Source: Escherichia coli (lineage in GTDB: Bacteria > Pseudomonadota > Gammaproteobacteria > Enterobacterales > Enterobacteriaceae). Taken from it: DNA of 64,000 nt. The translations under genes were made by a program, and so were the position numbers. Shown piece by piece: positions 1-4,217 of this stretch. Each line of letters opens with the position of its first letter. Position 1 is the stretch's first letter. Where the stretch lies: assembly GCF_009931435.1 (NCBI RefSeq), contig NZ_CP043414.1; one strand, 5' to 3'. The notes beneath the pieces were generated by a model. That model was not told the origin of the DNA. It ran no database searches and worked only from the letters and a program-made list of their open reading frames with translations.

Positions 1-681
1 CCATTCATCGCCAGAATAGGTCGCATGGAAACGCTGGGCGAGATTCACCTGATAGCAATCACCGCTGTGCAGATATTCCTGTACCTGGCGAAATTTTTCG
101 CCGTACAGCTCGCGGGTCATATTGGATTGCCAGTCGGAAGTGAGCGTGAAATCTTCCTGCGGCGAGAATTGCTGGCTTTCCAGCCAGGCCCGACGGGCAT
201 TGACATCATTATGACTCAGCAAAGAAACTGTTTGACGCTGGTGGTCGACAATGAGCGCCCAGTCGTAGATACCCACAGCCATATCCGGCAGAACGATATC
301 TTGCTGCGCAATTTCTGGCAGTGACTCAAAACGGCGGCCCAGATCGTAGCCAAACAACCCCAGCGCGCCGCCCTGAAATGGCAAATCTTCGTTATGCGCT
401 GGGCGAATGTCTGCGCGATCCAGCACCTGCTGGAGCACCTGTAGCGGGTCATCAGTGGTCGTTGTGCGTTTTTCGCTTTCACTAACAACGGTTTCTTTAG
501 CGAAAGTAGTCAAAGTACAAATCGGCTCGGCGACCACAATATCAAAGCGGCTATATGGATGATCGGCATAGCCGGAGTGTAAAAGCATCGCCCACGGCAG
601 GTGGCTTAAGCGGGAGAAATAAAATTCAGCGGCGTCCTGACGCCAGGGTAAAGTAATCACAGCGGGAGATAACGTCTTCAT
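1..681 (-). CDS. pabB: Aminodeoxychorismate synthase component I, N-terminal part (gene runs off the window start)
   Basis: Hand translation of the minus strand from ATG at 679..681 gives MKTLSPAVITLPWRQDAAEFYFSRLSHLPWAMLLHSGYADHPYSRFDIVVAEP..., open to position 1; not in ORF track because no stop lies in the window. Confidence 0.85.
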   Translation of the reverse strand, partial: MKTLSPAVITLPWRQDAAEFYFSRLSHLPWAMLLHSGYADHPYSRFDIVVAEPICTLTTFAKETVVSESEKRTTTTDDPLQVLQQVLDRADIRPAHNEDLPFQGGALGLFGYDLGRRFESLPEIAQQDIVLPDMAVGIYDWALIVDHQRQTVSLLSHNDVNARRAWLESQQFSPQEDFTLTSDWQSNMTRELYGEKFRQVQEYLHSGDCYQVNLAQRFHATYSGDEW

Positions 682-754
682 CAGTCCTGACTCTACTGGC
701 TAAGTGCCGGGTAGCATGAAATAATTAGCGCCAACAATTTAGCAGGAGTTAACA

Positions 755-934
755 ATGTTTGCAGGTTTACCTTCACTCACCCATGAACAGCAGCAAAAAG
801 CCGTCGAGCGGATCCAGGAACTGATGGCACAAGGGATGAGCAGCGGCCAGGCAATCGCGTTGGTGGCCGAAGAGCTGCGTGCCAACCACTCTGGCGAACG
901 AATTGTGGCGCGTTTTGAGGATGAAGACGAGTAA
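755..934 (+). CDS. yoaH: UPF0181 small protein YoaH (59 aa)
   Basis: Hand translation: [59 protein letters not shown]; SD-like AGGAG 7 bp upstream; below ORF-track size cutoff. Confidence 0.8.
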
Positions 935-1053
935 GACTCTAATCCGTATTGATTTCGTTATAGAAGCCGATGATTATTTGATTGTGAGAAAAAGGACGCT
1001 TTTTATATGTGGTTAAAAGCGTCCTGCCCCATTTATGCTGATGTAAATTTAAC

Positions 1054-1353
1054 TCAGACCAGTGCTTTTAGTTCTTCCTGCATATATGTTGAAAAGTATT
1101 CAGGATTTTTAATCACAGAGCGTTCACCAGACTCCATTTTTTTTGCCCATCCAACCATTTTTTCCGTGAACCCAGGGTTCCAGCCTTCCTGGTCAGCTCG
1201 CGCCGTAATATCAGCGGCACTCGCGGGTACTCCCAGTTCTTTCAAATATTTAAAGATTCCCTTCGCCGTGCTTTCATTCATCGAACTTGGTGTTGGCGCT
1301 GATACATCCATGGCACCAATGAAATCCAGGGCTTTATCTATTACAGCAGGCAT
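1054..1353 (-). CDS. yoaC: DUF1889 family protein YoaC
   Basis: ORF 1054..1413; start set at internal Met (MPAVIDKALDF...) to give 99 aa as in K-12. Confidence 0.75.
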   Translation of the reverse strand: MPAVIDKALDFIGAMDVSAPTPSSMNESTAKGIFKYLKELGVPASAADITARADQEGWNPGFTEKMVGWAKKMESGERSVIKNPEYFSTYMQEELKALV

Positions 1354-1773
1354 ATTCTTATCCTTAAAATTAACCATGTTATCGATAAGGCTATATATGA
1401 CCTTAATTTGCATCTAATATCAAAGGGATTATAACGATATGGCACGAGTTAACCTGTTGACATTCAGGTGTTTTAAAGGTAGCAGCTCATGGTGTGTTAT
1501 CCAGTAAGAGGGAGAAAATTAACGGTCAGTTCTCACGCTATAACCAGATGTTCAGCTAAGAAAGAAAACCAGAGATGCTAATCGAAGGGCGAACACAACG
1601 GCATTGTTATGTTTATTTATATAGTTAGTTTTATAGCTAAAATTGAAATTATAAAAATAAATAATGAATTAGCAGGAGCATCAACAGTAATATCTTAATC
1701 TCTGGTCGATTTATGTAAAACCGACCAGTATTATCGATAAATTATCGTCTGACTTATTTTGCTTCGATAAAGC

Positions 1774-2118
1774 TTACACCGCAGCCACAATCTTAATTTC
1801 AACTTTATACTTCGGGTTCATCAAACCCGCTTGTACCGTGCAGCGCACCGGCGCATGACCCGCGACAACCCAGGCATCCCACGCTTTATTCATCGCCGCG
1901 AAGTCGTTTTTATCAGCCAGGAAAATGGTGGCATCCAGAATGCTCGATTTATTGCTGCCCTGTTTTTCCAGCACGGCGTCAATCTGCGCCAGCGTGTTGG
2001 CGGTTTGCTCAAAGGCATTGGCGTCGAGGTTTTCCGGTACACCAGTGTAGTAGAGCGTGTTGTTGTGGATTACTACATCAGACCAGCGGGCTTCAGCATC
2101 GATACGAACGATAGTCAT
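1774..2118 (-). CDS. yoaB: RidA/YjgF-family protein YoaB
   Basis: ORF 1774..2166; start set at MTIVRIDAEARW (114 aa). Confidence 0.8.
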   Translation of the reverse strand: MTIVRIDAEARWSDVVIHNNTLYYTGVPENLDANAFEQTANTLAQIDAVLEKQGSNKSSILDATIFLADKNDFAAMNKAWDAWVVAGHAPVRCTVQAGLMNPKYKVEIKIVAAV

Positions 2119-2249
2119 CATTTTGTCCTCATTATCCTTCCATTTTCGTGCTGCAAAGACTGCCACAATGTGAGGTCGCCGTCACCACTTCAACTGGCGA
2201 AAGCGCCCTCATCCTGACATAATCCCTGTTCAAATCAACAGGGGGTAGT

Positions 2250-4160
2250 GTGACGGACGATTTTGCACCAGACGGTCAGCTGGCGAAAGCGATACCAGGC
2301 TTTAAGCCGCGAGAACCACAGCGTCAGATGGCGGTAGCCGTCGCCGGGGCGATAGATAAAAGCCAGCCGCTGGTGGTGGAGGCCGGAACCGGTACGGGCA
2401 AAACCTACGCTTACCTGGCCCCTGCGCTGCGGGCGAAAAAGAAAGTCATTATCTCGACCGGTTCAAAAGCGTTGCAGGATCAGCTCTACAGCCGCGATTT
2501 GCCAACGGTTTCAAAGGCGTTGAAATATACGGGCAACGTGGCGTTGCTGAAAGGGCGCTCTAACTACCTCTGCCTCGAACGTCTCGAACAGCAGGCGCTG
2601 GCGGGTGGCGATCTACCGGTACAGATTTTAAGCGATGTGATCCTGCTGCGCTCCTGGTCTAATCAAACAGTCGATGGTGATATCAGCACCTGCGTCAGCG
2701 TGGCGGAAGATTCACAGGCGTGGCCGCTGGTCACCAGCACCAACGACAACTGCCTTGGCAGCGACTGCCCGATGTATAAAGATTGCTTTGTGGTCAAAGC
2801 ACGCAAAAAAGCGATGGACGCCGATGTGGTGGTGGTAAACCATCATCTCTTTCTGGCGGATATGGTGGTGAAAGAGAGTGGATTTGGCGAACTGATCCCG
2901 GAAGCTGACGTGATGATCTTCGACGAAGCCCACCAACTGCCTGACATTGCCAGCCAGTATTTTGGTCAGTCACTCTCCAGTCGACAACTGCTCGACCTGG
3001 CAAAAGACATCACCATCGCCTACCGCACCGAATTAAAAGACACCCAGCAGTTACAAAAGTGCGCCGACCGCCTTGCCCAGAGCGCGCAGGATTTTCGCCT
3101 GCAATTAGGTGAGCCAGGTTATCGTGGCAACCTGCGCGAACTGTTAGCTAATCCGCAAATTCAGCGAGCATTTTTACTGCTCGATGACACCCTGGAACTT
3201 TGTTATGACGTGGCGAAACTGTCGCTGGGGCGTTCCGTCTTGCTGGATGCGGCATTTGAGCGCGCCACGTTGTATCGTACGCGGCTGAAACGGCTAAAAG
3301 AGATCAATCAGCCGGGCTACAGCTACTGGTACGAATGCACTTCGCGCCATTTTACTCTGGCACTCACGCCGCTTAGCGTGGCGGATAAATTCAAAGAATT
3401 AATGGCGCAAAAACCAGGTAGCTGGATCTTTACCTCAGCAACGCTGTCGGTGAATGACGATCTGCATCATTTTACCTCGCGGCTTGGCATTGAACAGGCA
3501 GAGTCGTTGCTGTTACCCAGCCCGTTTGATTACAGCCGCCAGGCGTTACTCTGTGTGCCGCGCAACCTGCCGCAAACCAATCAACCGGGCTCCGCACGGC
3601 AACTGGCGGCAATGTTGCGACCGATCATCGAAGCTAACAACGGTCGTTGTTTTATGCTTTGTACCTCGCACGCCATGATGCGCGATCTGGCCGAGCAGTT
3701 CCGCGCTACCATGACGCTTCCCGTGTTGTTGCAGGGGGAAACCAGCAAAGGCCAACTGCTACAGCAGTTTGTCAGCGCCGGTAACGCGCTGCTTGTGGCG
3801 ACCAGCAGTTTCTGGGAGGGGGTGGACGTGCGTGGCGATACATTGTCACTGGTGATTATCGACAAGTTGCCGTTTACCTCCCCGGATGACCCGTTGTTAA
3901 AAGCGCGCATGGAAGATTGCCGTTTGCGCGGTGGTGACCCGTTCGATGAAGTACAACTGCCGGATGCGGTCATTACTCTCAAGCAGGGAGTAGGGCGACT
4001 GATTCGCGACGCCGACGATCGAGGGGTTTTGGTGATTTGCGACAATCGGCTGGTGATGCGCCCTTACGGCGCGACGTTTCTCGCCAGTCTGCCGCCAGCG
4101 CCGCGCACCCGTGACATTGCCCGTGCGGTTCGTTTCCTTGCGATACCATCCTCCAGGTAA
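2250..4160 (+). CDS. yoaA: DinG-family ATP-dependent DNA helicase YoaA
   Basis: 636-aa ORF, GTG start; Walker A AGTGTGKT, DEAH-like box (MIFDEAHQL) and four-Cys Fe-S cluster region. Confidence 0.9.
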   Translation: MTDDFAPDGQLAKAIPGFKPREPQRQMAVAVAGAIDKSQPLVVEAGTGTGKTYAYLAPALRAKKKVIISTGSKALQDQLYSRDLPTVSKALKYTGNVALLKGRSNYLCLERLEQQALAGGDLPVQILSDVILLRSWSNQTVDGDISTCVSVAEDSQAWPLVTSTNDNCLGSDCPMYKDCFVVKARKKAMDADVVVVNHHLFLADMVVKESGFGELIPEADVMIFDEAHQLPDIASQYFGQSLSSRQLLDLAKDITIAYRTELKDTQQLQKCADRLAQSAQDFRLQLGEPGYRGNLRELLANPQIQRAFLLLDDTLELCYDVAKLSLGRSVLLDAAFERATLYRTRLKRLKEINQPGYSYWYECTSRHFTLALTPLSVADKFKELMAQKPGSWIFTSATLSVNDDLHHFTSRLGIEQAESLLLPSPFDYSRQALLCVPRNLPQTNQPGSARQLAAMLRPIIEANNGRCFMLCTSHAMMRDLAEQFRATMTLPVLLQGETSKGQLLQQFVSAGNALLVATSSFWEGVDVRGDTLSLVIIDKLPFTSPDDPLLKARMEDCRLRGGDPFDEVQLPDAVITLKQGVGRLIRDADDRGVLVICDNRLVMRPYGATFLASLPPAPRTRDIARAVRFLAIPSSR

Positions 4161-4217
4161 TTTGTGATGGAGTATGGTATGATGCGCGCCTTTTTATTGA
4201 TCTAAGCACGAAGACCC

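Follow-up and report, generated by a model that had tools for sequence, protein, structure and literature searches.

The yoaB-yoaC locus and the boundaries of the gap

The first 4 kb of the window, the 64-kb stretch of Escherichia coli DNA analysed here, correspond to the reverse complement of the pabB-yoaH-yoaC-yoaB-yoaA region of E. coli K-12. A 1.2-kb query centered on the AT-rich tract considered in this work recovered matches at 95-99% identity in 5425 of 5426 complete E. coli genomes, and the genes annotated beneath it are yoaB, which codes for a member of the RidA family, and yoaC, which codes for a DUF1889 protein. The flanking genes named in an earlier note on this sequence are thereby confirmed; the tract itself is present as a single copy in 5423 of the 5426 genomes. 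In the RefSeq annotations of both the closest strain and MG1655, yoaB occupies 1774-2118 and the 99-aa yoaC occupies 1054-1353 (the latter also in agreement with the Pfam alignment). With both of them on the minus strand, the tract lies downstream of yoaB and upstream of yoaC, which corrects the unclear or mistaken wording on orientation in the earlier note.

The left edge of the tract also had to be moved. It had been placed at 1414 on the basis of the longest ORF, which opens with an ATG at 1413 and would yield a YoaC of 119 aa. We rejected this longer form, given that its ATG lacks a Shine-Dalgarno sequence and is either replaced by ACG or AGG in other Escherichia species or has its frame broken there by indels of 1-2 nt, and that the Pfam DUF1889 profile begins to align only at its residue 21. 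For the 99-aa protein, whose ATG at 1353 has a Shine-Dalgarno AAGGA 7 nt upstream (1365-1361), the alignment to this profile begins at residue 1. Since yoaC starts at 1353 and not at 1413, the true yoaB-yoaC intergenic region, as defined by the RefSeq start and the Pfam alignment, is the stretch of 420 bp from 1354 to 1773, with a GC content of 33.1%; neither NC_000913.3 nor the PGAP annotation records any feature within it.

The description of the tract as unusually AT-rich holds: 1414-1773 has a GC content of 34.2% as against 50.4% for the window, placing it in the lowest 1% of 360-bp windows (only 0.9% are as AT-rich). The values are lower still in 1600-1760 (25.5%), in the middle spacer at about 1501-1700 (12-30%) and in the 60-mer that the earlier note had singled out (about 12%). 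The ORF list likewise bears out the statement that no ORF of at least 60 aa lies within the tract. Its characterization as repeat-like was not upheld: TRF finds no tandem repeats in it, and a repeat search recovered just short two-copy direct repeats at chance level along with imperfect AT palindromes. A dispersed repeat was also considered and rejected, as the tract occurs in one copy in E. coli and on no genuine plasmid, its only 'plasmid' hits being mislabelled chromosomes.

An Escherichia-specific cassette and its pattern of conservation

We compared 80 loci around YoaB homologues, using one genome per species and locating the neighboring genes by tblastn. This revealed that yoaB and yoaH are convergent genes with stop codons 0-8 nt apart in Citrobacter, Salmonella, Klebsiella, Raoultella and Enterobacter, and equally so in Lelliottia, Leclercia, Kosakonia and others. 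Among these 80 loci only those of Escherichia, namely E. coli, E. albertii, E. whittamii and three representatives of the cryptic clades, have yoaC and its AT-rich flanks between the two genes, in the form of an insert that ranges in length from 0.84 to 1.3 kb. In the window the insert spans the 839 bp between the yoaH and yoaB stop codons (935-1773), and includes yoaC along with a control region and a terminator of its own. It shows two hallmarks of a genomic islet, in being absent from the orthologous site in related genera and in having a GC content of 37.8% in comparison to the 50.4% of the window. No target-site duplication, terminal repeats or integrase are visible at its junctions; no phage homologue of YoaC was found, and the only plasmid hits of this protein are again mislabelled chromosomes. 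We conclude that the stretch between yoaB and yoaC belongs to a cassette that is small, old and confined to the genus, made up of a gene together with its control region and terminator.

The gene in question is a real, expressed and functional one: yoaC is induced 2-fold at a growth transition in O157, and a yoaC deletion mutant is sensitive to boric acid, a defect that is partly complemented. Toward yoaH, the cassette contains a bidirectional terminator shared by yoaC and yoaH (988-1025), recognized from its sequence and from Term-seq, whose hairpin (AGGACGCTTTT / AAAAGCGTCCT) occupies 993-1025. The Term-seq lists of Adams et al. 2021 (PMC7815308) include ends at this hairpin at K-12 positions 1894497/8 (+) and 1894457 (-). 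The former corresponds to about position 988 of the window on the minus strand, right after a T5 run; as far as those lists extend, Term-seq confirms canonical ends at this hairpin.

Within the gap, we found 13 differences from K-12, all of which fall between 1510 and 1698, with none in 1354-1509 or 1699-1773. A panel of 10 diverse E. coli displays 2.7 segregating sites per 100 bp in 1354-1500, 14.5 in 1501-1700 and 5.5 in 1701-1773 (four sites in all in the last of these), as against 6.0 and 4.6 in the coding sequences of yoaC and yoaB respectively. Thus, the block 1354-1500 is more conserved than the genes on either side of it, and the rate of change in the central 200 bp is close to that of neutral sequence. 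The latter segment, a fast-evolving and extremely AT-rich spacer (1501-1700), is barely alignable across the seven Escherichia sequences compared, is deleted in Escherichia sp. MOD1-EC7003, which belongs to one of the cryptic clades, and has been removed in strain D72 by an IS1-associated deletion. The approximately 150 bp proximal to yoaC are nearly invariant across the same seven sequences, and a hairpin near yoaB is kept. Conservation beyond the flanking genes, the lack of which, together with a lack of transcription, the earlier note had named as refuting its proposal, is a property of the proximal block and the hairpin and does not extend to the near-neutral middle.

The yoaB 3' end and the yoaC control region

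Inverted-repeat searches, folding and covariation converge on a conserved stem-loop at 1702-1728 on the minus strand (yoaB sense), with an 11-bp stem that includes one G.U pair and a 5-nt loop. Every position of the stem pairs on this strand, whereas the plus strand has an A.C mismatch in place of the G.U. In a context of 101 nt the minus strand folds at -24.9 kcal/mol (z = -3.4) and the plus strand at -18.1 kcal/mol (z = -2.9). An alignment of 10 distinct Escherichia sequences, in which 92.7% of the cells pair in the stem, displays compensatory double changes at two stem pairs (G-C to A-U and U-A to C-G), and its covariation score was reached by only 11 of 500 shuffles; the wobble pairs in this alignment pair on the minus strand only. 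An extended palindrome of 75 nt around the hairpin also folds in E. coli, but we did not retain it because its conservation is limited to the core stem.

Two lists of file 1 of Adams et al. 2021 (PMC7815308) report an RNA 3' end at K-12 position 1893787 (+), which those authors labelled 'orphan'. Mapping of this position, verified by sequence, places it at 1698 on the minus strand of the window, 4 nt past the stem, and the same two lists contain no other 3' end for K-12 within the gap on either strand. Measured from the stop codon to this end, the yoaB 3' UTR is 76 nt in length (1698-1773, minus strand). The hairpin has some of the features of an intrinsic terminator, in that it is a stable, G+C-containing stem-loop with a 3' end just past the stem. 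On the yoaB strand, however, the stem is followed by AGAGAUUAAG and not by a U-run; the sequence directly 3' of it, AGAGAUUAAGAUAUU, departs from an intrinsic terminator in this respect, and a terminator scan found none at the hairpin. Given this lack of a U-run we do not claim it as a proven terminator, and instead regard it as a structure that either gives rise to the yoaB 3' end or protects it; this end could arise by processing.

In the mechanism we propose, yoaB transcripts end 4 nt past the 11-bp stem-loop, which, lacking a U-tract on the yoaB strand, would function as a weak, non-canonical intrinsic terminator or as a barrier to 3' exonucleases. It is like known intrinsic terminators and 3'-protecting stem-loops in being a stable, conserved structure situated soon after the stop codon with an RNA end 4 nt beyond it. 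It is unlike the former in the sequence that follows the stem, and the neighboring yoaC/yoaH terminator is canonical by comparison.

At the opposite side of the gap, the near-invariant block contains a perfect TATAAT on the minus strand (1433-1428), which we predict to be the yoaC -10 hexamer on account of its invariance: ATAATCCCTTTGAT is unchanged in 7 Escherichia sequences, as is the ATAAT of the hexamer. There is no recognizable -35 element, with the hexamers at 16-18 bp spacing (AGGTTA, CAGGTT and ACAGGT) matching TTGACA at no more than two of six positions; a consensus promoter scan did not list the site, and inspection by eye showed no sigma-54 or sigma-S signatures. DUF1889 proteins are also found in Klebsiella, with 69% protein identity. 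The K. aerogenes gene has a -10-like element upstream at the same place, and upstream of the Klebsiella genes the similarity to E. coli begins at about the predicted start site, both of which fit a transcription start near 1421. The proximal yoaC promoter near this position is thus a prediction drawn from conservation.

The predicted 5' UTR downstream of it is about 68 nt long (1354-1421, minus strand) and ends in the Shine-Dalgarno sequence; it has no differences from K-12, is conserved throughout the genus and is partly preserved upstream of the Klebsiella DUF1889 genes. A structured leader was considered and rejected, as its fold is no better than that of shuffled sequences (z = +0.36). Reading of the sequence further points to a conserved dyad, CCTG-N8-CAGG (1453-1468, minus strand), which falls within the near-invariant block of the Escherichia alignment, fits the LysR-type T-N11-A pattern and is centered near -40 of the predicted start; it is a candidate activator site, to which an activator protein would bind. 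Taken together, the 150 bp next to yoaC would constitute a core promoter and a leader of about 68 nt with a strong Shine-Dalgarno sequence, and since the TATAAT is not accompanied by a -35 element, this promoter should depend on an activator.

Chromatin immunoprecipitation studies have placed two regulators at this locus. Connolly et al. 2019 (PMC6765310, Tables S3/S4) reported ChIP-seq peaks of the LysR-type protein YhaJ in the yoaB-yoaC intergenic region of both EHEC and UPEC, with two replicates each, and counted yoaC among the known YhaJ-regulated genes; in their EHEC table, whose rows are ordered by the replicate-1 peak-shape score, this peak occupies the 4th row. Gao et al. 2018 (PMC6237786) found by ChIP-exo that YeiE binds upstream of the RNA polymerase site of yoaC, with activation. 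The proposal in the earlier note of a nucleoid-protein-bound regulatory region is accordingly borne out as far as a protein-bound regulatory region goes, the documented proteins being YhaJ and YeiE; occupancy by a nucleoid protein is a separate matter, which we take up below.

By coordinate mapping the YhaJ peaks fall approximately within 1677-1728, with centers at about 1694-1718. The UPEC CFT073 centers (2045445 and 2045463), mapped through the CFT073 locus, correspond to about 1694-1712 of the window, and the EHEC center, as estimated from the reported distances, to about 1711-1718, on the hairpin. A YhaJ box of the LTTR type (T-N11-A) was predicted by Connolly et al. (PMC6765310) at what is here 1631-1646 on the plus strand, and reads TTATAGATAAAATTGA in K-12, EHEC and UPEC. 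The window has a C at 1637 within it, a position that is C in four and A in six of 10 E. coli. The box keeps the T-N11-A and one half-site of TCAA-N5-TTGA, and is a weak match to a position weight matrix (PWM) that we derived from strong YhaJ sites. Within the gap the PWM scores no higher than 5.3 bits, in comparison to 13.5-21 for the training sites, and 421 positions of the window score 4 or more; we found no convincing match to it in the gap and did not adopt a strong YhaJ box there. Nor did we adopt a sequence at 1476-1461 that resembles the yhaJ autoregulatory site, as it lies far from the ChIP center.

The YhaJ peak centers lie about 270-300 bp upstream of the predicted yoaC promoter. 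Recognition sites of LysR-type regulators are usually centered near -65. Because the peak centers are far from that position, a second, more distal promoter may give rise to a long leader, or the action of YhaJ may be indirect. The yoaC region resembles the promoters of the YhaJ regulon with which it is listed (yqjF, yhaK, ybiJ and yhhW) in its intergenic YhaJ occupancy in vivo, in its proposed T-N11-A box and in having a core without a -35, as expected for activator dependence. It differs from them in that its box matches a single half-site (TTGA) and scores poorly next to strong sites, and from textbook LysR-type promoters in the roughly 270-300 bp that separate the peak center from the best-conserved -10.

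A motif scan also identified an exact match, TCGATAAATT, to the high-affinity (nucleation) motif of H-NS on the plus strand at 1734-1743, beside the hairpin and just beyond the AT-rich spacer at about 1501-1700. This is the sole 10/10 match in the 64-kb window to the 10-bp motif tCGATAAATT defined by Lang et al. 2007 (PMC2094087). Of the five other Escherichia species compared, four have it exactly or at 9/10 positions, and Escherichia sp. MOD1-EC7003 matches at 8/10. From this one motif match and the base composition we infer a putative H-NS nucleation site. The likely logic would be H-NS silencing of the foreign cassette, which LysR-type activators would relieve or modulate, with the AT-rich middle of about 200 bp probably acting as a low-constraint landing pad for DNA-binding proteins, where YhaJ is cross-linked in vivo. 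The comparison with H-NS-silenced loci, such as the proU negative regulatory element and bgl, is apt insofar as the cassette is AT-rich foreign DNA, absent here from sister genera, and insofar as its exact tCGATAAATT is flanked by AT-rich sequence of lower quality that could support spreading. Unlike those loci, the yoaC islet is very small (0.84 kb) and has just one high-affinity motif.

Alternative readings of the gap and its biological meaning

The earlier note had offered an unannotated small RNA or a micro-ORF as candidates for the function of the tract, and had suggested a search for conserved structure with covariance models. Rfam run at a permissive threshold over 900-2300 gave no match near any threshold, the best ones (10-22 bits, E = 1.7-9.9) being to models such as those of eukaryotic snoRNAs and falling well short of their gathering scores. 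With no Rfam match, no annotation and the only mapped 3' end in the Term-seq lists being in the yoaB sense at the hairpin, the small-RNA proposal finds no support. One form of it would be an independent gene of about 90 nt on the plus strand, running from a promoter-like TTTATA-16-TAAAAT (1616-1643) to the hairpin. That site scores 9/12, the hairpin also folds on the plus strand (z = -2.9), and U-rich sequence is found downstream of it in all Escherichia species. Nevertheless, promoter-like sites are no commoner here than in shuffled sequence (2 found against 3.2 expected), sequences from outside E. coli do not preserve the -10 element, and the stem has A.C mismatches on this strand where the minus strand has G.U. 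Moreover, the K-12 Term-seq lists contain no plus-strand 3' end in the gap, and the body of the supposed RNA would lie in the fastest-evolving segment. We therefore regard such a gene as highly improbable.

A different possibility is that the 76-nt yoaB 3' UTR accumulates or is released as a regulatory RNA, for instance one bound by ProQ. The stable 'orphan' 3' end in the two Term-seq lists, the compensatory changes in the hairpin and the mere four segregating sites in 1701-1773 of the E. coli panel are all compatible with this. Against it, the sequence from the stop codon to the hairpin varies by indels and substitutions among Escherichia species, which leaves the 3' UTR without a conserved seed; we identified neither an internal promoter nor a processing site in it, it lacks a U-tail for Hfq, and a hairpin at an mRNA 3' end is the default expectation. 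In light of these points we consider a regulatory RNA of this kind improbable.

Translated micro-ORFs fare worst, and we see hardly any chance that one exists here. The window does contain candidates on the plus strand at 1609-1698 (29 aa), 1489-1581 (30 aa) and 1439-1507 (22 aa), in addition to the 20 codons by which the ATG at 1413 would extend the N terminus of yoaC, and older annotations apparently used the 119-aa yoaC, judging from the distances in the ChIP table. Yet the 30-aa ORF exists only since the window lacks a T at 1548 that all nine other E. coli carry, and the 29-aa ORF has a 1-bp insertion (at 1686) in two of 10 strains along with eight substitutions. None of the candidates is preserved in other Escherichia species and none has a Pfam hit; the extension, as noted above, has no Shine-Dalgarno sequence and is ACG/AGG or frameshifted in the sister species. 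Indels within E. coli thus interrupt these ORFs of 20-30 aa, which are missing from sister species, and the micro-ORF proposal is not supported. In sum, the idea that the gap conceals a hidden small RNA or mini-gene is not supported, and its conserved parts are explained by the hairpin, the promoter and the leader.

One might go further and regard everything apart from a short promoter and the hairpin as functionless, neutral filler of the yoaC cassette, with the ChIP signal reflecting non-specific affinity for AT-rich DNA. The near-neutral diversity of the middle 200 bp, its deletion in one clade and its IS1-associated loss in strain D72 are in keeping with this, as is the lack of a convincing YhaJ box. 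The YhaJ signal speaks against it, being 4th in the EHEC table and reproduced in UPEC and in both replicates, as do the citation of yoaC as YhaJ-regulated (PMC6765310) and the conservation of the exact H-NS motif in most of the Escherichia species compared. On balance this reading appears unlikely. At the other extreme, the hairpin, the adjacent H-NS motif and the YhaJ peak centered on them might together form a single boundary element at the cassette edge, coupling yoaB termination, H-NS nucleation and LysR-type counter-silencing, and possibly driving a distal promoter with a leader of about 300 nt, or else the yoaB 3' UTR might be released as a regulatory RNA; we offer this as a speculation that is quite unlikely to be correct.

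The explanation that best accounts for the gap, and probably the right one, is that of a composite control and UTR region within a small horizontally acquired cassette. The gap is an ordinary though composite non-coding stretch, in which the hairpin-capped end of the yoaB message is followed by the regulator-bound control region of yoaC. It represents a known kind of regulatory intergenic region, the regulatory half of which is already documented in the ChIP literature, and the remaining gaps in knowledge at the yoaC control region are ordinary ones and not signs of a new kind of element. Beyond annotation hygiene these results matter little. Nevertheless, they bring the 'orphan' Term-seq 3' end and the ChIP peaks from the literature together in one coherent map, strike one entry from the candidates for new small RNAs or small proteins, and show that the cassette is an Escherichia-specific insertion. 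The tract itself acts as the control region for yoaC, a DUF1889 gene that is poorly understood, belongs to the YhaJ regulon and affects boric-acid tolerance.

Transcript ends and leader of yoaC

Between yoaC and yoaH lies a canonical bidirectional terminator (993-1025; arms AGGACGCTTTT / AAAAGCGTCCT) with a run of five T on the yoaC strand, which the consensus scan did not find because its loop is 11 nt long. Published K-12 Term-seq data place RNA 3' ends on both strands at this terminator; the minus-strand end maps to window position ~988 and the plus-strand end to ~1029 (PMC7815308). A separate comparative Term-seq table of the same study (file 2; PMC7815308), presumably a Rho/bicyclomycin comparison, lists a further 3' end at K-12 position 1894397, which is antisense to yoaC.

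At the other end of the gene, comparison of the yoaC leader (1354-1426) with those of Klebsiella DUF1889 homologues (L084 2430-2500 and L085 2425-2500, the fetched genomic loci) revealed that the ~70 nt 5' of the start codons are recognisably alike. These homologues sit at a different genomic location from yoaC, and the promoters upstream also differ. An anti-Shine-Dalgarno CCUU ~25 nt upstream is common to E. coli yoaC and K. aerogenes and absent in K. pneumoniae; the fold of the yoaC leader was not significant.

A palindrome in the yoaC-yoaB gap

The gap also contains two copies of a perfect 10-bp palindrome, TTATCGATAA, one within the yoaC leader (1379-1388) and the other (1731-1740) overlapping the H-NS motif and close to the center of the YhaJ ChIP-seq peak. 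Its first 8 nt are identical to the start of the box TTATCGATCG... listed for the EHEC YhaJ peaks at z1211 and z1651, which are Ag43-like genes (PMC6765310). This shared sequence could hint at an alternative recognition element for YhaJ.

The yoaB/yoaH junction across strains and genera

In the window strain, positions 486-4200 show an identity of only 96.1% to K-12, with yoaA diverging by 5.3% versus 1.2-1.3% for yoaB and yoaC; over 1000-2200, only 9 genomes match it at 99% identity or higher. These values point either to a lineage that has diverged or to recombination of the yoaA segment. In E. coli strain D72 (L092 1520-2580), an IS1A element with an adjoining deletion takes the place of most of the intergenic region; the 5' end of yoaC is lost as well, and the gene carries a pseudogene annotation. 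In ~60 of 5426 E. coli genomes less than 80% of the tract is covered. Some strains can therefore do without the yoaC cassette.

We compared the junction (insertion points 934/935 and 1773/1774) with the loci L024 (4346-7594), L043 (4381-5433), L052, L073, L035 and L032. It holds the yoaC cassette in Escherichia, a 3.2-kb ABC amino-acid transporter operon in 'Enterobacteriaceae bacterium 89', and an insert of ~1.1 kb containing a 350-aa ORF in Phytobacter and Kosakonia; in several Kluyvera, yoaH and pabB do not adjoin yoaB. The point where the stop codons of the convergent genes yoaB and yoaH meet is an insertion site used recurrently in Enterobacteriaceae.
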